In this document: positions 5,999 through 54,065 of the stretch, piece after piece
Position numbering within the stretch: the stretch's first letter is position 1
Layout of the letters: the number at the start of each line of letters is the position of its first letter
From: a virus
Taxonomy: Duplodnaviria; Caudoviricetes
Virus record (IMG/VR): IMGVR_UViG_3300025428_000004
Coordinates: 502 to 64,501 of that record
Length of the DNA: 64,000 nucleotides
Strand: one strand, 5' to 3'
Position numbers and translations under genes: made by a program
The notes under the pieces: model-generated
What the model was told of the DNA's origin: nothing
Database searches by the model: none
The model's input: only the letters and a program-made list of their open reading frames with translations

Positions 5999-6730
5999 AT
6001 GACAGCGGGATTAAACTATCAGGGATTCGTCAATCAGATATCGACATTGGCTGTCGTTTCATCTGGAGACGCCAATTTCCTTGCGATTTTGCCGCAAGCG
6101 ATAACCTATGCCGAGAATCGCATATATCGCGAGCTGGACCTACTTTTCACGTCTGTCGCGAACACGTCTTTTGCCCTGACGGCTAATAATCGGCAGATCA
6201 CGATTCCTGCCGGTACCTTTGTCGTTCCAGAACAGATCAACGTCATCGCGCCATCGTCAGCGACAGGGCCTGATAACGGCATACGCGTACCGTTACTGGC
6301 AGCGACGCGAGAATTTATCGACGCCACATGCGGTGATTCCAGATACGTCGGATTGCCAAAGTATTTTGCACCTGTAGGCGAGGCGAAGGGCAATCTGTCC
6401 TTCATCGTTGGTCCGTATCCAGACGCACCGTACAAGCTTGAGATCGTTGGCACGATCCGGCCGGACAGCCTTTCGACAACGAATCCGACCACGTTTATCA
6501 GTCAATTCCTGCCTGATCTTATGATCAATGCCGCAATGATCTACGTCAGCGGCTATCAGCGTAACTTTTCATCGAATGCCGCCAATGATCCGCAAATGCC
6601 GGTCAATTATGAGACGCTGTACCAGACAGCGATGAAAGCGGCGATGATGGAAGAGGCGCGCAAAAAGTTCGAGGCCGCTGCCTGGTCCGATAAGTCGATA
6701 TATCCAGTATCAACACCGTCGCGGGGATAA
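5999..6730 (+). CDS. Tail adaptor / tail tubular protein A-like
   Basis: I..AE.RI.REL, G.PKYFA, VGP.PD..Y motifs; position before nozzle gene. Confidence 0.7.
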   Translation: MTAGLNYQGFVNQISTLAVVSSGDANFLAILPQAITYAENRIYRELDLLFTSVANTSFALTANNRQITIPAGTFVVPEQINVIAPSSATGPDNGIRVPLLAATREFIDATCGDSRYVGLPKYFAPVGEAKGNLSFIVGPYPDAPYKLEIVGTIRPDSLSTTNPTTFISQFLPDLMINAAMIYVSGYQRNFSSNAANDPQMPVNYETLYQTAMKAAMMEEARKKFEAAAWSDKSIYPVSTPSRG

Positions 6731-13700: not shown

Positions 13701-16285
13701 GTCTTGGCGCACTTGCTGGTCTTCTCCTTCTTAAGAGAGGCGGTCGCGTTTCATCAGGTCGCAAAAAGCTCAGTACTGGCGGCCCTGATTCGGAAGCAAC
13801 GTCCGATGTTTCAGAGGTTGTCGATACGCCTACGCCTGACGTGCCAGTAGAGCTCGTAGAGGTCGAAAAGAAAAAACCAGCGCCTGTTGAGCAAGCAGTG
13901 CAGGTTGCAGATGCAGCGACATCGAGAAGCGATGCGCCGGCAGACGATGGATTTAATCGTCATGTCGGTACGGTGTTGAAAGTTGAAGGCGGTTACACAC
14001 CAGATGACGCCGGACACGGTCCGTCTAATCGCGGCATTAACGCCGCTGCGCATCCCGGCATGGACATCAAGAATATCTCTGAAGGTCAGGCGCGAGATAT
14101 TTATCGCAGAGAATATTGGGACGGCGCTGGCATTGGTAATTTGCCGGAGCATATGCGCGGTCTTGCGTTTGACGCTTCTGTTAATCAGGGACCAGGTCGT
14201 GCGCGCGCATGGGCGCAACAAGCTGGCGATGATCCATACAAGCTCTACAAGCTTCGTCAGGAGCACTATCAGAGTCTGGTTGATCGCAATCCTGGCAAGT
14301 ATGCGCAGTATGCGAATTCATGGAATGGCCGTCTAAACGCGCAAGCTCAACTCGCTGGCATTAAGGACATCAGCAATCTGCAAGTAAACGGTCATCCTGC
14401 GCGTAACACGGGTGGTGGTCCAGAATATCTTGACCGCTCGATGATGGCGTCTACTGACGGACATGAGCAACAAATTGGACCAGGCGCAGAAGAAAGCGGC
14501 GGTCTTGGTGCGCTCGATGTTATCCTGCCTTTAGCTGCCGCTGGTGCGCAGTATGCGGTGAATAGGCATTATCACGGCGCAGGCGCTGCCGCTGCATCTG
14601 CGCTCGCCTCTGGCCTGGGAACGCTTGGTGGCATGCGTACGGCAGGTCTCGAAGAAGAGCGCGCGCGCCAGAAAATGGAATTAGAGCAAAAGCGTTTTGA
14701 TCGCGATATGAGCAACGATGAGCGTAGCTACGGTTACAAAGATCGTGAAAATCAGCGCCAGGACGAAGAGCTGAAAATCAAGCAGCGTGAATTCGAAGCG
14801 AAAGAAGCGCAGCGCAAAGCTCTTGAAGACGCCTACAAACAGAATCCGTCGTCATCTGAGCCAGAAGGCGGTTATGGCCCCAAAGGTGGAGTCGGCGGTG
14901 TTGGCGGTGTTGGCGGTACGGGCGGTGTAAATGCGCCACCTGTCGCGCCTCCATCTCCACCTGTACAGCCTACGCCTAACAACTCTATCCAGGTTGCTCC
15001 TGAAGAGCCTGTTAAGAGCACGCAACCGCCTGTCCAACGACCTCCTGTCCCGGTTGAGCCTACTGGCACGACGCCGCCAGAACAGAATCCGGTAAGCGAT
15101 GCTACAGGCGTAGCTAGCAAGGTCAATGCGCCGACAGAGCCTCCTGTTGCACCTCCAGCTCCTGTCGAGCCTGCGCCAAAGCCTGCCGGTACGCCAGATC
15201 CTGCGAAGTTCTGGCCCGGTTCAGAAAATCACAGCAATCCGTATTTCTTCAGCGCCAAAGCTGATGAGGCTGGCAAAATGGCTGCCAAGCTTCGTCAGAG
15301 CCCATACACGGCCGACCAGGCTGCGAAGTGGGAAGAGGCGCAACGGTTCTATCTTGGAAAAGCAAGAGACGCTGCAACATCGCGCACCGTGATGATGAAA
15401 GACGGCACCGTGCAGATGAATCCCTGGGCGGTACAAACGGAAGGCCAAGCAGGCGCATCTATCAAGGCGGCAGAAATGCAAGCCGGCAAAGATGTCGAAA
15501 ACCGCAACTCTTACGAAGAGATCGAGCCGATACCTGGCGGACCAAAGCAGCTCATTCGCAAAGACAAATTGCTAGAGCAGGTTGGCGTCGATCCTACCGT
15601 CATCAAGTCACAGCCTGCCTGGGTGCAAGAGACGCGTAACGCTCAAGCAAAAGAAGAAGTCCAGATTCCTAACCAGATGAAAGGTTTTCAGCTTTCACTG
15701 ACGCGATTAAAGCGCATGCAGGAAATTCAGCAAAGCCTTCAGACCGGCAAGTTCGAGCCGCAAAAGGCAGAGATCTACGCTGCGCTCGACTCTCTCGGCA
15801 TACCGATCGACAAGAAGCGTTTGCGTACCGCTGAAGAAGTACAGCAATTCCTCAAGAACGGTGTTGCGAACACGTTCGAGCAAGTCAAAGCAATGGGCGG
15901 TCGTCCGCTCGTCGCAGAGATCGAGGGCCTGGCAAGAGCAAATGCTAATGCTGCGCTGACGCCTGAAGCAAACCGTCAGATCATTGCGCGCTCAATCGGT
16001 CAGATCCAATACAACACCGACTATCTGAACGATTACGTCAATTGGCGTCGCGAGAATCCATACACGATCGACACAATGCGGTTCGATCAAGAATGGATGA
16101 AGACTCACGACATCCATGACTACGAAAACCGCGCAGCCGACGAAGCAACGGCTGTCGGTTCACATAATCCACCGGCTAAACCAACTGTTCTGCCTCCTGT
16201 CGATCAGCGTGTTGCAGGTAAAACGGCGCAAACAATTGGCGGCAAGACGTACCTCTGGAATGGGCAAGGTTGGGCAGCGCAATGA
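10769..16285 (+). CDS. Giant ejection/DNA-transfer protein: Gln-rich N-terminus, peptidase S74-like domain, GH108 lysozyme, helical C-terminus
   Basis: FSDPRLK...IYRY...GLMADEV...VDG..MDY (12050-12270); LKVEGGY...NRGI...IYRREYW...FDASVNQGPG (13973-14340). Confidence 0.8.
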   Translation: MGMGAGGGGGGQQGASMTSFNGTSTVTPPAEVLDMYRSINPLAQKAASTPWENYSNTPDGFVAQINDTQNSAIQGLDNNIYTAQPYTNQGMGSLGSASNLYGASSDQATAAGNGVVANYGATNIASPYYNNAMNLTADAASAPGGYDVANPYLQSGAGLIGYGGQGTNQVSAQDINQYLSPYQNDVINSTMGLLSQQNNQAMSGALGNAIESGGFGGDRAGIAAANLAQQQELANANVLGGLENQNYSQALSTAVGQRGQNQADLQRAIQAGQGLGQIGSQAGSLQQSDLQRQLAAGQQEAAIGTQQYQNYTAQQAQQQQDLQRQLAASQQLANNASGLTNLGNSQAQMGINLNNSINQGLESQLGAGTLQQQTEQAGKDAMYNQWLQMKAYPFMTTQWLADIYGGLGPLYGSTTTQSGTSMSMPLGFSDPRLKGGVGGFSRGGDADKPEVIGKTFDDQPIYRYSMMGGAPQLGLMADEVAQKQPEHVYNVDGLLAMDYAGATDDAARIGHHLGANHREHFAGGGLAGALAAQSQMYANKHPGQAGPGGNSFVPQGKGGGHGALTPTSINVPKAELTQPKVQHPPPDIAGSLEKMKGLAGLGGKGGGLGNLFGGSGSGGLGGAFDTAASTSTPAATTAAQVASTPAPSGEEFPKVTPASTDSAPLPPARPSDLSSVADATDSTDYGTDGAGGVSQMADADLGMLDFAARGGRIGRSIGGVMPFNNESGSVPFAPNGGSMPFEQGMKNNIVPASVLNDQHHPQMMVSQPPDMMKMSGQGGGGKKGGGEGGKQAEQMMKQGMDQMKGLMEKGTKGAEAAPTKITEQATKPVQDAADKTQLADSVEHAADGVQNTSSQAENGLGNIGEHAANGAENDASQGLGEVGKDLGNNASEAASGLENSASEGLGDLGSSLGDAGGSLGDVAGDASAGLADAAGDGLMGASEDAAAGLGDMAAEAGADAAAAGAEAAAGAAGGGLEGLGALAGLLLLKRGGRVSSGRKKLSTGGPDSEATSDVSEVVDTPTPDVPVELVEVEKKKPAPVEQAVQVADAATSRSDAPADDGFNRHVGTVLKVEGGYTPDDAGHGPSNRGINAAAHPGMDIKNISEGQARDIYRREYWDGAGIGNLPEHMRGLAFDASVNQGPGRARAWAQQAGDDPYKLYKLRQEHYQSLVDRNPGKYAQYANSWNGRLNAQAQLAGIKDISNLQVNGHPARNTGGGPEYLDRSMMASTDGHEQQIGPGAEESGGLGALDVILPLAAAGAQYAVNRHYHGAGAAAASALASGLGTLGGMRTAGLEEERARQKMELEQKRFDRDMSNDERSYGYKDRENQRQDEELKIKQREFEAKEAQRKALEDAYKQNPSSSEPEGGYGPKGGVGGVGGVGGTGGVNAPPVAPPSPPVQPTPNNSIQVAPEEPVKSTQPPVQRPPVPVEPTGTTPPEQNPVSDATGVASKVNAPTEPPVAPPAPVEPAPKPAGTPDPAKFWPGSENHSNPYFFSAKADEAGKMAAKLRQSPYTADQAAKWEEAQRFYLGKARDAATSRTVMMKDGTVQMNPWAVQTEGQAGASIKAAEMQAGKDVENRNSYEEIEPIPGGPKQLIRKDKLLEQVGVDPTVIKSQPAWVQETRNAQAKEEVQIPNQMKGFQLSLTRLKRMQEIQQSLQTGKFEPQKAEIYAALDSLGIPIDKKRLRTAEEVQQFLKNGVANTFEQVKAMGGRPLVAEIEGLARANANAALTPEANRQIIARSIGQIQYNTDYLNDYVNWRRENPYTIDTMRFDQEWMKTHDIHDYENRAADEATAVGSHNPPAKPTVLPPVDQRVAGKTAQTIGGKTYLWNGQGWAAQ

Positions 16286-19200
16286 CAGAAGTTCTAAGCG
16301 ACGATCAGCTCCTTTCACTTGAGAAGCCGAAAGCAGATGTCTCTTTCGCGCCAGAGGAGTCTGCGCCGGCTCAAAAGTCAGAGATCTTGTCTGATGACCA
16401 GCTCATGGCGTTGCATGCACAGCATCGCCCAGAAGAAGCGCCTCAAGGAATACTGACGCGCACGGAAGACGATGGTTATGGCTCCGGTGCATTAAAAGGC
16501 GCAGCGACGGCAACGATACATGGCCTATCGTCTATCCCTGGTACGGCAGGCAACATTAGAGACTTTGGTCGCTATGGCGCTGATCGTGCAGTTGGCGCAA
16601 TTACAGGCGCGACGCCAGAAGAGATCGAGAAGAAACGCATTAAAGGTTACGATGAAGACCTGGCTGATTGGATTGGCGAGAAAACAGGTTTTCGTCCGCG
16701 TATGCCAAACACGGAGACGTTTGCTGCGCCTATTGAAGAAAAGACTGGTCGATATGATCCAGATACTGTTGGCGGCAAGATTGCGCAGGGCGCATTAGAA
16801 GCCGGCATCGGCGCAATGGGTCCAGGTAGTGGCGTGCTTAAAGCAGGCGCAAAAGCTGGACCTGCTATTGCTGAAACGATCGCACCAAAAGCTGCGGCGC
16901 TGAATATGCTTGGCGGTGGCGCAGGCGCAGGCGTAACGGATATCACTGGCGATCCGCTGTACGGATTTGGCGCAAGCGTTTTATCGGGCGGCGCAGCGCA
17001 TGCTGGCGAGGCTGGCTTTAACAAGTTTGGCAAACCAATAAAGGCGCAGTTCTCAAAAGGCGCACGCGACGCACAAGCCGCTGAACAGCTCTTAGGCTAT
17101 GCGCATGATCCAGAGGCTCTGAAACAATCGCTTGTTTTCGGCGATGCGCAAGGTCCGGTAAAAGATCAGATCGTTCCTGGCTCGCCATTGACGCTCGGTC
17201 AGCGGTACGGCGACACCGGTATTTTACAAGCAGAGCGTTCGTTCAGAAGCGATCCTGAATTCGGATCTGAGATCAACAAGCGCGAGTCGCAACAAAACGA
17301 GGCGCGTCACCAGGCTCTTGCTGATGTGCCAAAAGATACGGCCGTCACGACTGATCTTCCCAATGCGGTACGCGATCGACATACAACGATCACGCAACGA
17401 TATGAACAAGCAGAAGCAGCTCTATACGAGCGTGCGCAACGAGAAATGGCGGCGCTTGGCGAGCGTGCAGATCCGTCAGAGATCGGTCAGCGTCTGCGTG
17501 AGGATATCCAGAAGTCTCGCGACGCAGAGAAGAAAGATATCGACAAACTATACGACGAGGTGGATCCCAACGGCGACATGTCGTTGCTGACAAGCCCGGT
17601 GCAAAAAGCGCGTGATGCAATCCTGGCGGACAAGGGCGCGTTCACAGAGCATTCGCCAGAGCTGACGGGCGTTCTTAATCGCCTGGAGAATCTGCAAGAC
17701 GTCCATACGTTCAAAGATGTCAGGGATTTAGACCGCCTTCTGTCGGAAAAAATGTCGGCAGAACGCAGGGCAAATGGTGAAACAACGAGCTGGCGTCACT
17801 TGGCGGCCTTGAAAGGCGCTACAAAAGAAGCCATAAATAAAGCTATCGAGAACCAGATCGCCTGGGAGAATGCGGCGGTCAAAGAGGGCAAATTACGGCC
17901 AGAGGACACCCTTGAAGGACGACTTGGACAATCTGACCCTAGAGCTGCCGCTGCCGGAGAGGCCGCTGCAAGTGCTGGAGAGGGTGATGAATCGGTACGA
18001 CAGACCGCCGGAGGAGATCGCCCTGTTCCTCCAGCGTCTGGAAATTCGCGGCAAGAAGGAAGCGGACCTGGAAATGTTAATGGCGGTGCGGGATTATCGC
18101 AAAAAGTACCAACCGGTGGGCATAAGGTTTACTACCCAGGTGGAAATGTAGATGTTCAGCATCAGGTCGTCGATCTGAATGACCTGACAATCTCACACAA
18201 TTCCGATTTCACTGAGAATCCAAAATTCCCGCAAGAGCTCCAGCCGCGTGATCGTTCTGGCAAGCCTGCGCAAGACCAGGTTCTGCACTACACCAACAAT
18301 CTCAATCCTGATCAGCTCGGTATCAGCGCAGAAGCTAATACGGGCGCTCCTGTCGTTGGTCCTGATGGCGTTGTTGAAAGCGGCAATGGTCGCTCGATGG
18401 CCATCCGTAACAACTACGCCAAGGGGGATCCTCGCGGCTATCGCAAATGGCTTGAGTCGCAAGGCTACGACACGACGGGCATTAAAAACCCTGTATTGAT
18501 TGCACGACGTACCAGCGAATTGACGCCATCGCAGCGCGAGTATTTCACGCAAAACGCTAACTCGAAAACCGGCCTAGCGATGAATGCGGTGGAGCAAGGC
18601 GCAGCCGACGCCAAGTTCCTGACGCCTGAAGTGCTTTCAAAGCTAGAAATGGGCGATGTTAATTCCGCTGCTAATGCTGCGTTTGTTAATGAGGTGATGA
18701 GCAAACTGCCGGTTAATGAGCGTGGCGATTTCGGCACAAGCGACGGCAAGTTATCGCAATCTGGCGTACAGCGTCTCAAGGCTGCAATTATGTCGCGTGC
18801 GTTTGGCTCTGACGACATTGTGCGTCGTGGCTTTGAAAGCACAGACAACAATATCCGCAATGTTACCGGCGCGCTGTCTGATATTGCTGGTCCCTGGGCG
18901 CAGATGCGTGCAGCGGCAGAAGCTGGACATATCGCGCCTAATCACGACGTGACGAAAGAACTGATCGACGCGGTGCATAAGATCATGCGTGCGCGCGACG
19001 AAGGTCGTCCTGTCAGTGAAGTGATCAAACAGAAGGACATGTTCGGCGGTGATACGCCAGAGCTCGTCGCAAAGCTTCTGTTTAACGGAGACCGTGTCGC
19101 TGGACGGCAGGCTATCGCGGAGCGGCTACAGCGGTATGCTGTTGAGGCGCTCAAGAATGAGTCTGGACCTGGTTTATTCGGCGACACGGTTACTCCCGAC

Positions 19201-20718
19201 GATATCTTGAAAACAGTTGGCGGGAAGGGTGGCGAAGAGCCTGCCCCAGAAGCGCCAAAGGTCGAAGAGAAACAAACCGACACTGGTACGTTTGAGGCAG
19301 GCGCAAATGAGCCGCCTCCTGGCACGCGTCCTAACATGGAGCCTGGTCAAGCTGACAAGCTGAAGACGGCTAACAAGCGGTACGGTGAATATGCGCAGAC
19401 GTACAAGAATGGCCAGGTACGCGATGTCTTGAAGACGACCGGTTTCAAGGATCAGTATTCCGTTCAGGATTCGGCTGTCGCGGGTCGCGCTGTAAAGCCT
19501 GGCGATACAGGACTCGAAACAGCGACGCGTTTCTTGAAAGCGGCAAAGAATGGCGAAGGCGCAGTCAGCGCGATGAAAGAGGCTGTGCTTAACAAGTTCC
19601 GTGATCTCGTAAAGCCTGACGGTACGATGGACGCCAGGAAATTCGCCACAGTGCGTAAAAGTTTTGATGGCGCAATACAGGCGATCGACAAGGTTTCGCC
19701 TGGTTTTGCGCAGTCATTGGAGAATCCGGCAAAAGCGGCTGAGTCTATGGCGGCGTTTTGCAAGAATAGAAAAGAGGCGCTCGATGCTCTGCAAAAAGAG
19801 GCGGCGTCCAAGTTCCTTGGCCTGCATGATCCTGTCGAGATCGAGAATGCTGTCGGCAAGCTCATCGACGGACAAAGCGTCACGCGCGTACGCGATGTCG
19901 TAAAAGACCTGCCTCCAGATGCAGTTGAAGGCATGCGCAAGGCGGCAGTCGATTGGATCCTGCGCGCTAAGACAAATGTTGCGCGTCCTGGCGTTGGCGA
20001 GACGCGCGCGCTGTCGTACGCAAAGCTTGATACGATGCTGAAGAACAAGCGTCCGATGCTTGAGGCGATATTTACGCCAGAGCAAATGTCAGTGCTAGAT
20101 AACGTCAATCGCGATCTGATGCTGTCGGACAGATCTGTCCAGGCGACAAAAGATCGTACCAATACCTCTGGATCTGGTCGCGCTGCGGCTGATCATCTGA
20201 AGGCCGCTGGATCTGATATCGCAAACATGACCGTTGGCGGTATTCTCTATGCAAGCGTCGCAGAAGGATTCCATACGGGTGGATTGTTTGGCGCATTAAA
20301 GATCGGCGTACCGGCAGCCCTTGTAAAGCTGGGCATGAAGATGCGTGCAAGCGGCATGCAATCCGTCAATGACGTCGTCAAGCAGGCAATGCTCGATCCA
20401 GAGTTCGCGCGTGAATTGCTGAACAAGGTGCCGGTTAGAAACCAGGAAATTCCGCAAGGCTGGGCAGATAAAATCCAGAACGCAATACACCGGACAATCT
20501 ATCGGTCGTACTTAAGCGGCGTTCCTGTTATGCAGGACGAACAGCGTAAAGCGCGCGCAACGGGTGGTAGAATCGGTCGTTCTGCAATGACGCCTGACCA
20601 GTTGATCACGGCGCTAGAGCGTACGCGTAAAGATCAGCAAAAAAGCACGGAAGTCATTCTTAGCAAGCCAGACGCAACGGTCGTTCGGGCTCTCGATATA
20701 GCAAGTCAACAACTCTGA
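16282..20718 (+). CDS. Giant polyvalent/ejection protein with DdrB-like ParB domain
   Basis: PQELQPRDR...GAPVVGPDGVVESGNGRSMAI (about 18120-19170); otherwise helical. Confidence 0.75.
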   Translation: MTEVLSDDQLLSLEKPKADVSFAPEESAPAQKSEILSDDQLMALHAQHRPEEAPQGILTRTEDDGYGSGALKGAATATIHGLSSIPGTAGNIRDFGRYGADRAVGAITGATPEEIEKKRIKGYDEDLADWIGEKTGFRPRMPNTETFAAPIEEKTGRYDPDTVGGKIAQGALEAGIGAMGPGSGVLKAGAKAGPAIAETIAPKAAALNMLGGGAGAGVTDITGDPLYGFGASVLSGGAAHAGEAGFNKFGKPIKAQFSKGARDAQAAEQLLGYAHDPEALKQSLVFGDAQGPVKDQIVPGSPLTLGQRYGDTGILQAERSFRSDPEFGSEINKRESQQNEARHQALADVPKDTAVTTDLPNAVRDRHTTITQRYEQAEAALYERAQREMAALGERADPSEIGQRLREDIQKSRDAEKKDIDKLYDEVDPNGDMSLLTSPVQKARDAILADKGAFTEHSPELTGVLNRLENLQDVHTFKDVRDLDRLLSEKMSAERRANGETTSWRHLAALKGATKEAINKAIENQIAWENAAVKEGKLRPEDTLEGRLGQSDPRAAAAGEAAASAGEGDESVRQTAGGDRPVPPASGNSRQEGSGPGNVNGGAGLSQKVPTGGHKVYYPGGNVDVQHQVVDLNDLTISHNSDFTENPKFPQELQPRDRSGKPAQDQVLHYTNNLNPDQLGISAEANTGAPVVGPDGVVESGNGRSMAIRNNYAKGDPRGYRKWLESQGYDTTGIKNPVLIARRTSELTPSQREYFTQNANSKTGLAMNAVEQGAADAKFLTPEVLSKLEMGDVNSAANAAFVNEVMSKLPVNERGDFGTSDGKLSQSGVQRLKAAIMSRAFGSDDIVRRGFESTDNNIRNVTGALSDIAGPWAQMRAAAEAGHIAPNHDVTKELIDAVHKIMRARDEGRPVSEVIKQKDMFGGDTPELVAKLLFNGDRVAGRQAIAERLQRYAVEALKNESGPGLFGDTVTPDDILKTVGGKGGEEPAPEAPKVEEKQTDTGTFEAGANEPPPGTRPNMEPGQADKLKTANKRYGEYAQTYKNGQVRDVLKTTGFKDQYSVQDSAVAGRAVKPGDTGLETATRFLKAAKNGEGAVSAMKEAVLNKFRDLVKPDGTMDARKFATVRKSFDGAIQAIDKVSPGFAQSLENPAKAAESMAAFCKNRKEALDALQKEAASKFLGLHDPVEIENAVGKLIDGQSVTRVRDVVKDLPPDAVEGMRKAAVDWILRAKTNVARPGVGETRALSYAKLDTMLKNKRPMLEAIFTPEQMSVLDNVNRDLMLSDRSVQATKDRTNTSGSGRAAADHLKAAGSDIANMTVGGILYASVAEGFHTGGLFGALKIGVPAALVKLGMKMRASGMQSVNDVVKQAMLDPEFARELLNKVPVRNQEIPQGWADKIQNAIHRTIYRSYLSGVPVMQDEQRKARATGGRIGRSAMTPDQLITALERTRKDQQKSTEVILSKPDATVVRALDIASQQL
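17912..18151 (+). CDS. Putative nested small gene (79 aa) in +1 frame of the polyvalent protein gene
   Basis: AGAGGA SD + TTG; helical charged sequence; host frame here is low-complexity with many GGA codons. Confidence 0.5.
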   Translation: MKDDLDNLTLELPLPERPLQVLERVMNRYDRPPEEIALFLQRLEIRGKKEADLEMLMAVRDYRKKYQPVGIRFTTQVEM

Positions 20719-48907: not shown

Positions 48908-49566
48908 TGACTGCAACTGTCAGCATGAAGGATTACTGGCCGCTATTCACGCACGGCGGCAAGATCACTTACTACTACACGGGCATCAAGCCTGAGACGC
49001 CGCATCTCTATGCCGAGATCTTCTACGACGCCGAGAAAAAGGCGATGTGCTACAAAGAGTACGACGTCGCCAAAGACGGATCGTATTCCTGGCGCGATAG
49101 CTGGTTCTATGAATATCGCGAAGGCTTTGGCATTGCCGAGTATCGTGATGATTATCCATCGCCTGGCAAATGGTGGGGCGACACCAAGGTTGTCGTCATG
49201 GATCCGCCGATAGGTTGGGGCGATGTTCAACAAATTGGCAGCGTTTACGAGAATGAGCCTGCGTTTGTGTTCGATCAGTGCATACCGCCGAGCGTTGCCT
49301 ATGGCGATCAGCGCGTAGAGTTCGAGCGCAAGTACGATGAGTATCAGAATGCGCGCGCTTTCTGGATCGACGTTGTTCGCTTCCGTTATTACCAGGCCTG
49401 GAATGGCGGCAATGCAAGCGGCGCAATCTATTGGTTTGCGCCTGCACGCGGTCCAGTGACGCAGCAATTCCTTGCACGCCTGCCAAGCGGTGAAGTCGTT
49501 TACTCCGACATCTACAGCGCAGCGGTCAGCCTGGTTAATTGGCCTAAAGGCGAAGAGGTGGCGTGA
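48904..49566 (+). CDS. Hypothetical protein, paralogue B
   Basis: GIAEYRDDYP...VMDPPIGWG. Confidence 0.75.
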   Translation: MMTATVSMKDYWPLFTHGGKITYYYTGIKPETPHLYAEIFYDAEKKAMCYKEYDVAKDGSYSWRDSWFYEYREGFGIAEYRDDYPSPGKWWGDTKVVVMDPPIGWGDVQQIGSVYENEPAFVFDQCIPPSVAYGDQRVEFERKYDEYQNARAFWIDVVRFRYYQAWNGGNASGAIYWFAPARGPVTQQFLARLPSGEVVYSDIYSAAVSLVNWPKGEEVA

Positions 49567-52500
49567 TGTCAGGCTCTGGCGGCTTATTTGGATTTGGTGG
49601 CTTGAATGGTGGGAGCATGTCTTCCAGCCATAACTCGCAAGCCATGCGCAACAATGTTGCAGGTCCAGTAGGCGGTACGCGTATGGAGTCGCCAAGCTTT
49701 GGTGATTACAGCACGGACCTAGCCAGCCAGGGCAATCTCTTGGACGAGTCTAACTTGACAGGGCAGGCGAATATGTCTGGCTTCCTGTCAGGTTTGGCGA
49801 ACGGTTACGCTAATGGCGGACCGATACCTGCGCATCATCACCAGGCAATCCTCGATGCGCTGCATGTTGTTCAGCATCATATGAAACGCGGTGGCGTTGC
49901 GCCGCATAACATCGACCAGCTCGCTAACATGACGCCGATTTCGACGGGCCCAAATGGGATACCGAAGAATTACGATTTCACGAATAGCATGCAGGTCTAT
50001 TACGACAAGCTTAACTCCGGCAACATGACGCCCAATGCCGCCAATGGTTATGCGGCCAACTTCTCGAAAGAAGCACAATCACCAACGGGCCTTAACTTTG
50101 GCCAGGCGCAGAATAACGGACCGGCAATCGGCCAGGGACAATGGGATGGTCCGCGCAAGCAAGACCTGATCAACTATTCGAATGCCAATTTCAACAACTC
50201 TGACGGTCCAGCATGGAAGCTGCCCCAGGCGCAAAATCAATTCTTCAACGAAGAGCGTACCAATAACCCCGTCATTGCGCGCGCTGATAACCAGATCCAG
50301 CAAGCGACAGATCCGCATCAGGCCACAGCACTTGTCGGCGCTGAATGGGAGAAGCCAAAAAACCTTGCTGCTTCTATGCCGCAGCGCCTTGCCTACAGCG
50401 ACGCTATTACTCAGCGCGTAAACAACGGCAATCCTTTCCCGCCTGGTCAGTGGGAAAAGTCGATGTCCAACTACGACTACAATAGCGGTACGCCAAACGG
50501 CGTGTCTGATAACCGCATTGATCAGATCGCAGCCAAGGGCCCGATGCAGCGCCCTGACGACCTAGAAGCATTGGCCGCTAAAGCTGATGCCGCCGCTGGT
50601 CGCGTGCCGATGCCGCCGCCGCGTCCTGCCGATATCGACAGGATGAAGGGCAATGTGCCGTCTGGCGGAGATCTGCCATCGCGCGGCATGACGCCTGAGT
50701 CAGATCTGCCTGTACGCAAGCCTGATGGCTTGGACTCATCAGACGCGAGTGATGTGATTGATGATGGCGGCGATAGCGTTGACGTCGCTGATAGCGGTTC
50801 AGACATTGCTGATGCGATAGATTTTGCAAGCAGAGGCGGACGCATCGGTTTTGCTGATGGCGGCAGTGACGATCTTGATCCGCGTGACAAGAACAACGGT
50901 GCGCTTGGCGAGTCAGTAGAGTTTGCGCCAGCCCCAGAGCGCAGATCCATCGAAGAGCATTATCCAAAGCCAGACAACGGCACAGATCTCTACGCCATCG
51001 CGCATGATCCGCGCGAAGAGCCGATGAAACGCTACGGCGCAATGGGCGCAGGCATGGCTGGCGATATTGCCAATGGCATGTGGGATCAGGTCAAGAAGCC
51101 TGGAGAGGCGTTGCGTGGCGAGTATGATCCAAGCGGCGGTAGAGGCGTTGGTGCATCTGACCAGGCAGTGAAGGATGCCGTCGGCATCTCGATGATGGGC
51201 CTTGGTTCAGGTACGGCGTTTAACAAGGTGCCCGATGGCGCAATCGGCATGTTCGCCGGCCAACGTGCAAAGACGGCAGACCTCGATGCATTAAAGCGCG
51301 CGCAAGAGATGGCGACGGGCACAACAAAGCCAAAGCCATACGGTGATTTGTTTGAAGGGCAGATACAAGAGAAGCCTGCCTATATGGACAAGATCACGCG
51401 CGATACCGGCTGGCATGCCTGGGGTCCAGACGGCAAACCTGATTGGGCGTTTGAGATTGCTGACAACACGGCGAAGTACAACCCGAAAGCAGGCCTGGCG
51501 CATTCGATTGAGGCTGATCTCCCGTCGTTGCAAACCCAGAACCCGAATGTCTCAGAACCTGCGCTGCGTCGTTATCTGGAAGACAGAGCAAACAAGTCTG
51601 GCTTCATGGCTCCGCTTCATACGATGCTCGATCATCCAGAGCTGTATGACGCCTATCCGCATCTTAAAGACACGCTCGTCTATATTGATCCGCCAAACAA
51701 AAGCAGCGGACGTCAGAAGCTGCTCGATCCAAGCGCGCGCGGCGCGTATCACCATGAGTCTTACCCAAAGCCCGATGGCACAAGAGAGAATGTCATTGCG
51801 CTGAAAAAGGCTGTCGGTATGTCGCCGAATGAAGGCCTGACGACGCTTCTGCATGAGATCCAGCATCACATCCAAAAGCACGAAGATTGGCAAGGCAAGG
51901 GCGACAACTGGAAGAATGCCGGCGAGAATCCTGCAACGAGTCCTCACTGGGAACGCTGGAATAAGTCAGACAAGACTGGTTCAGAGCCCAATAAAACATA
52001 CAGCCAGGTAATGACCTACCTGCTTAATGGCGGCGAGGCACAGTCGCGCAATACGCAACTGCGTCAAAAGATGACGATGGAAGAGCGTCGTCTGGATGAG
52101 AACCATCCATACCTGACGATCCCATTAACGCCGTATGAGCGCAACAAAAAGACCGAGCACTTTGCTGATCCGGCAGACATCCATTATCGCGCTGATGGCG
52201 GCGCTGTTCCAAGACGCGGCTATGCAACGAATGGCGCAGTAGACGGTGAAGTGTCGTTCGCGCCAGACGATATGCCTGCGCCAGAAGAGTCGCATAAGAA
52301 GTACGCCAACGACCTTCCGATCATGGCGCGCGACAATCCGCAAGAGCACATCAACGAAGCACTCGATATCGCAAACCGTCCGCAACCCGACGCGCATTCA
52401 TTCGTGCAGCAAGAGCTCAATACGGGTGAGAAACAGGTGCCGCAATACGATCCTGACGCTGGCGCTAAGACCGCAACCAAGGCGGCTCTTACGGGTTACG

Positions 52501-54065
52501 GAATGACGAATGCTGGCGGCGTACAAGACGCGCTCGGCGCAATGCCAGATGGCGAAGGCGGTTATAATCCGTCGCTATACGACAATATCCGCAAGGGCAA
52601 TTACGCTGACGCTGGCTTCCAGGCGATGGGCGCGCTTGTGCCTGGCGCAGGCGGTGTGGCTGCCAAAGTCGCCAAGGGCGCTAAGGCTCTCAAGGGCGCT
52701 GATGCTGTTGCTGATGCAGCCAAAGCTGCCAATGCGGTTGCTGATACAACAAAGGTCGGCGAAGCGTTCAAGCCTGTTGCGCCAAAGATCATACGCCCCA
52801 ACGAGATTGATACGCCAACGATCCGCCATATCCTGGGCGGCAATGGCTATACGGATATTCCAGAAAGCGCGTTGTTCTTTGATCGTATGAATGAGCCTGC
52901 CAGGATTCAGACGCCATCGACGCTCGCCGGCAATTTCCGTGACGCTGTCAAAGAGCATCTGAATATGAGTCGCATGGATCGTGCGATTAACAGCAAGGCT
53001 GCGCTCGATAAGCTTCTCCCATACATCGGCAAGAAGGATGGCGAGCCAATTGATTTGCTGACGCAAAACGCCAAGCTTGCAAAGTCAGCCAAAGAGCTCG
53101 GACCGATTATGCCAGGCGGCCTTGGTATCGACACCTGGGGTCTGTCACTGTCTCCTGCGATGCAGTGGGGCAAAATGAATCTGTGCTCGCATCACGCACC
53201 ATGCTGGCTTGACTGCCTGGGCAAAAAGTCAGGCGGCTACGCGCTCGAAGGCGGCATGAACGATAGTTACAAGTGGAATCTGCCGCGCGGTAACAGCATG
53301 GCGCGCACGATCGCCATGATGCAAGAACCTCGCGCATTTGCGGTACGGTTGTTGGATGAGCTGAACAGTACGAGTCACAAGGCCAACATGAAAGGCGCAT
53401 TGCTTGGCGCGCGCCTGAACACGCTTTCTGACTTGCACCCATCCGTATGGAAACCGTTCCGCGATGCCCTGCCAGAGGCGACGTTCTACGACTACACCAA
53501 GGTGCCAGGTCTGGTTGCGCGTGATTCAAACCATCATCTGACGCATTCGAGCTCCGGCATATCAACGAAAGCGGTACACAATCCGAATGCTAATTGGCTC
53601 GGACCAAACGGCATGCGCGCGCGATTAGATGCCGGCGACAATGTTGCCGTACCGTTCAGTCAGAAGAATGTTAAGCCAGAGTGGATCCACGACGAAGAAA
53701 CCGGTCGTCGGTACAAGGTTGTCGATGGCGATACGCATGACTTTAGACCGCATGACAAGACGCCAGATGGCGAGCAAGGCGTGATCATCGGCCTGGGCAA
53801 AAAGAACCAGGGTGTGTCTGCCGAATTAGCGCCGCGCAACTCGAAAGGCTTCTACTGGGATTACAACCCAAAGAAGCATGGCGACACCGTCTCTGTTCCT
53901 GATCAGAACCAGTTTGCGAAGGGTGGACGCGTTAAGCCGCGCGTCGATGAAGCTACATTCATGGAACAATTCCACAACCACGATCACTTTGTCGATACCG
54001 GCAAGAAAGAGATCGAGGATTGGTGGACGTTACCAGTAACAAAAGGATCTGCGCGCAAGCGTTGA
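49563..54065 (+). CDS. Polyvalent head-region protein: tail-lysozyme-like + LPD23/HExxH zincin-like + Gp88-like Cys-rich domain
   Basis: N..KE...G.GQW.G.R..WEKP (about 49990-50420); TGW..G.DGK..FEI.D..LDHPELY.AYP.L..LLHEIQH (51240-52130); CSHHAPCWLDC..RLN.LSD..FYDYTK..DGD..DFR (53050-53900). Confidence 0.75.
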   Translation: MMSGSGGLFGFGGLNGGSMSSSHNSQAMRNNVAGPVGGTRMESPSFGDYSTDLASQGNLLDESNLTGQANMSGFLSGLANGYANGGPIPAHHHQAILDALHVVQHHMKRGGVAPHNIDQLANMTPISTGPNGIPKNYDFTNSMQVYYDKLNSGNMTPNAANGYAANFSKEAQSPTGLNFGQAQNNGPAIGQGQWDGPRKQDLINYSNANFNNSDGPAWKLPQAQNQFFNEERTNNPVIARADNQIQQATDPHQATALVGAEWEKPKNLAASMPQRLAYSDAITQRVNNGNPFPPGQWEKSMSNYDYNSGTPNGVSDNRIDQIAAKGPMQRPDDLEALAAKADAAAGRVPMPPPRPADIDRMKGNVPSGGDLPSRGMTPESDLPVRKPDGLDSSDASDVIDDGGDSVDVADSGSDIADAIDFASRGGRIGFADGGSDDLDPRDKNNGALGESVEFAPAPERRSIEEHYPKPDNGTDLYAIAHDPREEPMKRYGAMGAGMAGDIANGMWDQVKKPGEALRGEYDPSGGRGVGASDQAVKDAVGISMMGLGSGTAFNKVPDGAIGMFAGQRAKTADLDALKRAQEMATGTTKPKPYGDLFEGQIQEKPAYMDKITRDTGWHAWGPDGKPDWAFEIADNTAKYNPKAGLAHSIEADLPSLQTQNPNVSEPALRRYLEDRANKSGFMAPLHTMLDHPELYDAYPHLKDTLVYIDPPNKSSGRQKLLDPSARGAYHHESYPKPDGTRENVIALKKAVGMSPNEGLTTLLHEIQHHIQKHEDWQGKGDNWKNAGENPATSPHWERWNKSDKTGSEPNKTYSQVMTYLLNGGEAQSRNTQLRQKMTMEERRLDENHPYLTIPLTPYERNKKTEHFADPADIHYRADGGAVPRRGYATNGAVDGEVSFAPDDMPAPEESHKKYANDLPIMARDNPQEHINEALDIANRPQPDAHSFVQQELNTGEKQVPQYDPDAGAKTATKAALTGYGMTNAGGVQDALGAMPDGEGGYNPSLYDNIRKGNYADAGFQAMGALVPGAGGVAAKVAKGAKALKGADAVADAAKAANAVADTTKVGEAFKPVAPKIIRPNEIDTPTIRHILGGNGYTDIPESALFFDRMNEPARIQTPSTLAGNFRDAVKEHLNMSRMDRAINSKAALDKLLPYIGKKDGEPIDLLTQNAKLAKSAKELGPIMPGGLGIDTWGLSLSPAMQWGKMNLCSHHAPCWLDCLGKKSGGYALEGGMNDSYKWNLPRGNSMARTIAMMQEPRAFAVRLLDELNSTSHKANMKGALLGARLNTLSDLHPSVWKPFRDALPEATFYDYTKVPGLVARDSNHHLTHSSSGISTKAVHNPNANWLGPNGMRARLDAGDNVAVPFSQKNVKPEWIHDEETGRRYKVVDGDTHDFRPHDKTPDGEQGVIIGLGKKNQGVSAELAPRNSKGFYWDYNPKKHGDTVSVPDQNQFAKGGRVKPRVDEATFMEQFHNHDHFVDTGKKEIEDWWTLPVTKGSARKR

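Follow-up and report, generated by a model that had tools for sequence, protein, structure and literature searches.

Genes nested on the same strand within larger phage genes are already known. In bacteriophage lambda, Rz1 lies in the +1 frame relative to Rz; in phiX174, gene B lies within A and gene E within D. The Rz/Rz1 spanins are described, in the abstracts of PMC5295617 and PMC6139136, as a small gene within a larger phage gene on the same strand and in a shifted frame, with a start of its own and with both products functional, and about 26% of the phiX174 nucleotides encode more than one gene, according to the abstract of bioRxiv 10.1101/2020.06.10.143693. The spacer of the hepatitis B virus polymerase overlaps preS of the surface gene, and the portion of PMC8227390 that deals with it describes a spacer frame that tolerates the dictates of the other frame. 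Here we analysed a 64,000-nucleotide (nt) stretch (the window; positions 502 to 64,501 of IMG/VR virus record IMGVR_UViG_3300025428_000004), in which a small open reading frame (ORF) is nested in the +1 frame of a gene for a giant virion-associated protein, over DNA that the main frame reads as a linker in front of a ddrB-like ParB domain. Judged from sequence comparison, this hidden gene is very probably real. We hold with high confidence that the stretch is dual-coding, its linker DNA being also a complete small ORF that would be separately initiated and selected mainly in the small frame. Literature searches returned no report of this nested gene, and what is new is this family. The locus comprises the following features:

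17912-18151, + strand: nested +1-frame gene, with a TTG start, 79 codons and a TAG stop at 18149-18151

17901-17906, + strand: Shine-Dalgarno (SD)-like AGAGGA, 5 nt before TTG 17912

17870-17911, + strand: upstream +1-frame extension from ATG 17870; homologues start at the equivalent of 17912

17935-18105, + strand: main-frame linker (amino acids (aa) 556-612), rich in G/A/S/P and predicted to be disordered (predicted local distance difference test (pLDDT) 29-38, no secondary structure)

18142-18510, + strand: ddrB-like ParB domain (PF18763) of the host protein, aa 625-747 (Pfam E 2.8e-30)

16282-20718, + strand: host gene of the giant virion-associated (polyvalent or ejection-type) protein P0001, 1478 aa from ATG 16282

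The nested ORF lies wholly within the host gene, over the part read in the main frame as the linker (G 18, A 11, S 7 and P 7 among the 80 overlapped codons), so that the low complexity reported for the main frame in an earlier note on this DNA, made from the letters alone, was borne out. That note had also described a 79-aa ORF from TTG 17912 with SD-like sites before 17912 and 17924; its coordinates and the peptide it quoted proved correct, with GAAGGA preceding TTG 17924. It was likewise right that, in the window, the ORF ends as the ParB-like domain begins (TAG 18149-18151 against a domain that starts at 18142). At its full extent, the +1-frame ORF occupies 17870-18151 (93 aa from ATG 17870). 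The nested product would be about 9.5 kDa with an isoelectric point of 5.5, and its conserved core comprises residues 1-66 (17912-18109). The 93-aa translation has no Cys and hence no lipobox, nor does it have a signal peptide or a membrane helix. The length of the nested ORF alone is no more than chance: between 14000 and 22000 there are at least eight more alternative-frame ORFs of 78-117 aa on the same strand.

The evidence that carries the dual-coding reading is the frame in which the overlap is conserved; DNA from 17 distinct relatives was available for comparison. Between the window and the homologous locus L083, whose big proteins are 50% identical, the small frame aligns ungapped over 70 codons, and residues were kept at 40/70 positions in the +1 frame, 23/69 in the main frame and 19/69 in the +2 frame, with BLOSUM sums of 199 for the +1 frame and 85 for the main frame. 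Nucleotide identities at main-frame codon positions 1, 2 and 3 were 27/64, 45/64 and 47/64 in the overlap, compared with 844/1344, 937/1344 and 512/1344 outside it in the gene (Fisher p 0.0014 and 2.7e-8 for positions 1 and 3, respectively). Position 3 was better kept than position 1 in 2 of the 46 sliding windows of the gene, both of which cover aa 527-623. Conservation in the overlap repeats every three bases in phase with the +1 frame, where residues are replaced conservatively, and in another pair, L007 and L004 (44% identical), third-position identity was 0.62-0.65 in the overlap and 0.17-0.47 elsewhere. In the closest pair, selection acts mainly on the small frame, the first positions of the big protein drifting and its third positions being held, and the main-frame linker sequence is under little constraint beyond staying open.

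This pattern was also compared with a recoding null, in which synonymous codons were drawn uniformly (5000 draws each) and shared ancestry was ignored. When the main-frame proteins of the window and L083 were fixed, 11.8±2.9 identities were expected in the +1 frame (maximum 24) and 39/69 were observed; a +1-frame stop arose in 92% of the draws. When the +1 proteins were fixed instead, a main-frame stop arose in about 100% of the draws, and 23/69 main-frame identities were observed against 15.2±3.1 expected (P 0.011). Stops thus arose on recoding in both directions, and therefore both frames are being kept open. Three further pairs gave the same outcome. Shared ancestry should contribute little to the recoding result, because third positions elsewhere are only 38% identical. 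The proposal that a hydrophilic linker is automatically stop-free in the +1 frame was ruled out by the frequency of stops among the draws.

Codon usage pointed the same way. The +1 ORF scored 0.153 in the per-frame check that the earlier note had proposed, above all 606/606 other +1-frame windows of the genome's genes (maximum 0.039) and on a par with the main frame at the overlap (0.17). The cluster of GGA codons noticed earlier was confirmed, GGA accounting for 12/18 Gly codons in the overlap and 14/130 in the rest of the gene (Fisher p 6.7e-7); this main-frame bias arises because GGA yields GAN (Asp or Glu) in the +1 frame. Contigs from 4 of 24 metagenome runs that contain the host gene showed no population variants in the overlap.

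These results bear on a reading without any second protein, in which the ORF is open by chance and its conservation stems from a nucleotide-level element (RNA structure or a regulatory site) or from composition. Alternative-frame ORFs of such length are indeed common here, and linker codons rarely have T at position 2, which, as reasoned from the genetic code, leaves fewer +1 stops. Against this reading stand the periodicity in the +1 phase, the conservative replacements, the stops upon recoding and the outlying codon usage. Moreover, the RNA of the overlap folded no better than shuffles (z 0.33; 125/200 shuffles fold as well), Rfam gave no match at E<=1 over 17000-19000, and a confident helical prediction was obtained from the small-protein alignment (see below). 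We regard this reading as highly improbable; on these comparisons it is largely refuted already, and the comparative signal for the nested frame is far beyond chance.

L009 contains a second reversed stretch outside the overlap: at aa 1219-1339 of its main ORF (about 6510-6870 of L009), third positions were 0.50-0.57 and first positions 0.38-0.48 identical to those of L002. This could be a misalignment, a local frameshift difference or another alternative-frame constraint.

The dual-coding reading gained further support from separate database proteins homologous to the nested product. A phmmer search of 1.84e9 representative proteins with the 93-aa translation gave 10 matches at E<=1e-3, of which nine were proteins of 64-103 aa (E down to 1.6e-25). 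In eight of these nine, the first residues are M/V-(A)-K-D and align with query residue 15-17, the equivalent of TTG 17912; the ninth, P0053, is partial and starts at residue 35. The helix DLEMLIAVRDW(R/K)K is common to all nine. The tenth match, a tetratricopeptide repeat protein, was spurious. A profile search extended the set to 34 small proteins (E down to 1.9e-29) on contigs of up to 24 kb, present in databases as scattered 'hypothetical protein' calls; the window's own copy seems to be uncalled in the record, because it is not among the 34 profile matches.

At the DNA level, a profile made from the close clade only matched the syntenic +1 frame of L009 (1.7e-6), L007 (4.4e-4) and L004/L005 (1.2e-3) and, more weakly, that of L002, L003, L008, L033 and L022; L084 scored 6.4e-4 once those distant sequences had joined the profile. 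The earlier note had asked whether stops interrupt the +1 frame in homologues. In L082/L083, L002, L003, L009, L004/L005, L007, L022, L008/L033 and L084, as in the window, the frame is open with homologous ends.

In a codon-compatibility scan, 58/61 database small proteins had co-encodable runs of at least 8 residues (up to 22) with the linkers of large homologues, compared with 18/61 shuffled controls; DLEMLIGVRDWRRRQ with GSGNADRGAGLAQEAA is an example of a co-encodable pair. When the co-encoding had to be exact, no database small protein fitted any of the large proteins retrieved, apart from the positive control. The main-frame linker motifs PEDT..EGR and GSGNADRG.GL correspond to the SD sequence plus start codon and to the DLEMLIGVRDW helix, respectively, AGAGGA being part of the conserved PEDT motif in the main frame. 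These conserved-looking motifs appear to be a shadow of the small protein, its SD sequence and its start codon.

Where translation of the small frame would begin was examined across the family. The start residue in homologues is the equivalent of 17912, neither ATG 17870 nor TTG 17924, and 17870-17911 is probably not translated within the small protein. L083 shares the GAGGA-N5-TTG arrangement, GGAG or GAGG precedes ATG by 7-11 nt in L009, L002, L003 and L022, and an SD-like sequence and start codon stand at homologous places in 6 of the 10 loci listed, being less clear in the others.

The weak TTG start, together with a +1 frame that is open for 24 codons upstream in the window, would also suit a +1 frameshift, the small sequence then being the C-terminus of a product made of the big protein's N-terminal 547 aa and the 79 aa. 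A database entry that reads two frames as a chimera, P0056, might be cited in the same sense. We consider such a product very unlikely. In L083, L004, L022 and L009, the +1 frame is closed by stops 2-7 codons before the start (in L083, 5 codons before the TTG); family members have ATG or GTG as their first codon at the homologous residue; the SD-like sequences are conserved, with no shared slippery sequence seen there; and P0056 passes from the small frame to the main frame, in the direction opposite to that required, and looks like a frameshifted contig.

The first part of P0056 itself (100 aa) resembles the small protein (MKDGLD...FVQKVARQG), and what follows resembles the main-frame linker with the beginning of the ParB domain (GRSGNADRGPGL...VFYP). 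This frame-switched chimera probably results from an indel in its contig.

Structure prediction set the two frames apart. With an alignment of 38 sequences, AlphaFold placed helices at residues 18-28, 33-50 and 53-66 of the small frame, with a core pLDDT of 85-94, whereas the main-frame linker, which lies between a helical region and the ParB domain, was predicted to be disordered between flanks with pLDDT 80-95. Together with the frame-specific conservation, the homologous small proteins and the codon usage, this prediction upheld the earlier proposal of a hidden +1-frame gene.

The same contrast can be read as a sign that the small gene is older and was once free-standing, the big protein or its long linker having arisen by reading through it in another frame; a course of this kind has been proposed for the hepatitis B polymerase spacer over preS, and the linker would then be the overprint. 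An ordered small frame within a disordered host frame reverses the usual pattern given in the relevant portion of PMC8227390, the main-frame linker is weakly constrained, with not many more identities than the +1 protein alone would impose, and homologues without the small ORF have short linkers. Nonetheless, no free-standing or fused copy was found in the phmmer search or in searches at near or longer lengths, the database small proteins are compatible with nested positions, and the flanks of 159 ParB loci gave no match. The big-protein family is also wider than the small one on the tree (see below), which favours a gain within an existing gene, although capture by insertion would look alike. 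On balance, we think an older, free-standing small gene unlikely.

Searches for the function of the small protein were uninformative. Its model had 0 matches in the Protein Data Bank (PDB) at E<=1e-3 by Foldseek and 0 in BFVD; the highest Z that VIA-align reached among 48,161 chains was 5.0, for a generic helical arrangement; and nothing rose above noise in Pfam, NCBIfam, PHROGs or the PDB sequence profile. In ESM Atlas, 'CopG-like' clusters appeared at 0.89, without a common Pfam family, and give a possible lead to the small CopG/ribbon-helix-helix regulators, in which an N-terminal beta-strand precedes two helices. Ribbon-helix-helix Pfam families gave no match at E<=10 in 10 members, and the model has three helices and no strand. 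The label 'ribonuclease D' that the Joint Genome Institute (JGI) attaches to some members was rejected as a chance match (a weak TIGR01388 match in 3/38, best E 0.0083). An embedded o-spanin (Rz1-like) was also rejected: the product has neither Cys nor an N-terminal hydrophobic helix, and the host gene encodes a ParB-domain virion protein.

The distribution of the ORF was then set against the phylogeny of the big protein, inferred from 18 rows. All eight ORF-bearing rows fall in one 10-row clade (Shimodaira-Hasegawa-like approximate likelihood ratio test (SH-aLRT) 95), which includes the ORF-less L021 and L092; the nested ORF is likewise absent from L006 and from a 7-row sister clade. Homologues without it have a much shorter linker. 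The simplest reading would be one gain within an existing gene followed by two losses, the long linker having come with the small gene.

This distribution also bears on the function suggested in the earlier note, namely that the small protein serves the ddrB-like ParB domain as its cognate inhibitor or chaperone and holds it in check within the cell that makes it, that the two travel as one in-frame cassette, and that the small protein is left behind at packaging. The end of the ORF at the domain start in the window would fit this suggestion, a nested position would guarantee co-inheritance and co-transcription, and L092 lacks P0001 aa 555-1006, that is, linker, small ORF and ParB module, as one block. 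The parts proved separable elsewhere. The ParB module occurs without the small ORF in L006 and L021, the latter within the ORF-bearing clade. Conversely, P0018 has no ParB module but its linker is retained, and 25 residues there are compatible, in colinear order, with a family member. L092 is the only case in which both are missing, which counts against a single cassette. ParB proteins of other architectures (P0023-P0046) had no compatible run clearly above shuffled controls, and ParB-only loci, by eye and among the rows listed, have Arg- or Pro-rich junk in the +1 frame. The abutment of ORF and domain is not general either, since about 45 extra main-frame codons stand between them in L002, L003 and L009. 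The suggestion found no positive support, and we judge it improbable. A complex prediction of the small protein with P0001 aa 615-990 scored 0.00 in two runs, made without controls, and counts neither for nor against binding.

P0018 (1138 aa) lacks P0001 aa 617-984 with the linker retained, and L092 is the complementary variant; the two variants together show the ParB module to be an exchangeable insert.

Several points weigh against the reading of a separately translated nested gene. The close clade is represented by two distinct DNA sequences only. The L009/L002 pair gives a weak third-position signal (0.52-0.58), and its main frame is conserved there to the same degree as the +1 frame. The recoding null takes no account of unequal codon choice or common descent, the nested position of the 34 database small proteins rests on the codon-compatibility scan, and the tree was obtained by a quick search and rooted at its midpoint. 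Confidence in the fold model is middling overall (mean pLDDT 75.9, predicted template modelling score 0.57), and nothing points to a function of the small protein. The start is TTG both here and in L083; start signals are weaker in L004, and the starts are not clear in L007, L008 and L084. No cultured phage was found with the family, none of the phage records searched by megablast and tblastn carrying it, and there was no RNA run among the sequencing runs listed with the region. A search of viral contigs with P0001 alone found none, the small-protein profile gave no confirmed match in viral and genome contigs, and it found none among longer proteins, which is weak evidence.

Taking the evidence for dual coding together, we propose the following scheme. 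A late structural gene encodes the 1478-aa virion-associated protein, in which a linker of about 70 residues connects an N-terminal region to the ddrB-like ParB module. The linker DNA, read one base to the right, holds a complete small ORF whose sequence, start and stop are kept where the big proteins are 30-50% identical. Ribosomes on the late mRNA would make an independent start at TTG 17912, just after AGAGGA, and the product would be a separate, soluble, mildly acidic three-helix protein. The small gene may have been born or captured once inside the existing big gene and lost twice later, and the long linker may exist because of it.

For the role of the small protein, our tentative preference, held at slightly less than even, is an accessory late protein that acts independently of the ParB domain, the usual case among overprinted viral genes. 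A partner of the conserved N- or C-terminal parts of the host protein, such as an assembly or packaging chaperone or a regulator, is a real but lesser possibility, and an inhibitor specific to the ParB domain would be surprising. A bolder version, which we put forward only as a speculation and think rather doubtful, is that the small, ordered protein is the primary object of selection, the linker existing because of the nested gene and the giant protein simply tolerating the disordered stretch that it reads there, and that the small protein is a new kind of late factor, made from the mRNA of the giant protein and acting with its conserved N- and C-terminal parts. If so, this small factor might, for example, load the giant protein into the capsid or control its release, and the disordered linkers in giant and polyvalent phage proteins would more generally conceal conserved genes that have been overlooked because standard gene callers cannot report them.

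The locus would in any case offer a clean comparative case of dual coding in a large tailed phage, with a nested frame that is ordered and dominant in selection and a host frame that is disordered, the reverse of the usual picture for overprinted genes. Gene callers that forbid nested genes leave such a conserved family unseen. The combination of reversed third- versus first-position conservation with a linker provides a search recipe for more, and domain analysis calls for caution, since motifs that seem conserved in a linker may shadow a gene in another frame.

The record is a 64.5-kb IMG/VR virus rated complete. It also encodes an SU10-type portal, a terminase and three giant proteins, and the following features lie around the host gene or elsewhere in the genome:

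10769-16285: upstream neighbour of the host gene, 1838 aa, with a GH108 lysozyme domain and an ejection-protein match

5999-6730: SU10-type adaptor, one of two adaptor paralogues in the genome

22202-23227, 29240-29989, 36560-37423, 5999-6730 and 63024-63788 (as a group): integrase, CI-like helix-turn-helix (HTH)/S24 repressor, outer-membrane beta-barrel protein gene and two SU10-type adaptors

The integrase and the CI-like HTH/S24 repressor indicate a temperate phage, and the outer-membrane beta-barrel protein gene is possibly a moron. Lysozyme, LPD23 and GP88 domains occur in a third giant protein (49563-54065). The neighbours of the host gene are structural genes. Its ORF is open from TTG 16270 to 20718 (1482 aa), with ATG 16282 the likelier start because the called protein P0003 is 1478 aa long and 100% identical; from this ATG, the gene shares 4 nt (ATGA) with the stop of the 1838-aa gene before it, as is typical of translationally coupled genes. 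Within the host protein, the PF18763 match reaches 105.4 bits against a curated cut-off of 27.6, phrog_5143 matches at aa 624-981, and the conserved ParB module runs on to about aa 984. P1 DdrB and other cultured phages match at aa 609-981 only, and full-length homologues are 33-52% identical.

DNA of the identical host gene (16270-20718) was found in contigs of 24 freshwater metagenome runs from 24 studies and one year, 20 of the 24 runs being flagged as possible sources of the present DNA; the phage is evidently abundant or persistent in the freshwater setting of those runs. Among the runs compared over the host gene, a contig from run X21 has 27 differences from the window within 19419-19542, mostly at main-frame third positions, with a 1-nt deletion at 19459 compensated by a 1-nt insertion at 19466, and the other three runs are identical to the window. 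The X21 patch looks like a segment recombined from a related strain.

Compared with known systems, the host protein fits the polyvalent proteins of Iyer, Burroughs, Anand, de Souza and Aravind (2017; PMC5512222) as set out in the main text of that paper, being large and multidomain, with a DdrB-like ParB domain and a place among late or virion genes. The words 'overlapping', 'frameshift' and 'linker' have 0 occurrences each in that main text, and the nested gene therefore lies outside the polyvalent theme as described there. In P1, the ORF iddB is annotated inside ddrB on the opposite strand, within the ParB-matching part (L162 3501-3899; NC_005856 26577-26975). It resembles the present case in that its function is unknown and that ddrB, the gene around it, is the prototype for the DdrB-like ParB domain; BLASTP of iddB against the small protein gave nothing at E<=100.

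Like Rz1 in Rz, the small gene is nested in a larger phage gene and would have its own start. Rz1 is an outer-membrane lipoprotein of the lysis cassette that binds the product of its host gene; the small gene here instead sits in a gene for a virion or ejection-type protein of the structural module, it overlaps a disordered linker, and its product lacks lipobox, signal peptide and membrane helix. The phiX174 genes share with it same-strand nesting and dual constraint, in a 5-kb single-stranded DNA genome with pervasive compression; here the genome is that of a large temperate double-stranded DNA podophage, and the family spans big proteins that are 30-50% identical. The polymerase spacer of hepatitis B virus, to the extent that the relevant portion of PMC8227390 covers it, is alike in that a flexible spacer between domains shares its DNA with another protein in a shifted frame. 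Unlike that animal virus, whose genome is compressed almost throughout, the present one is a 64.5-kb tailed phage with a single such spot, the codon-usage scan having given a positive score to no other +1 or +2 window.

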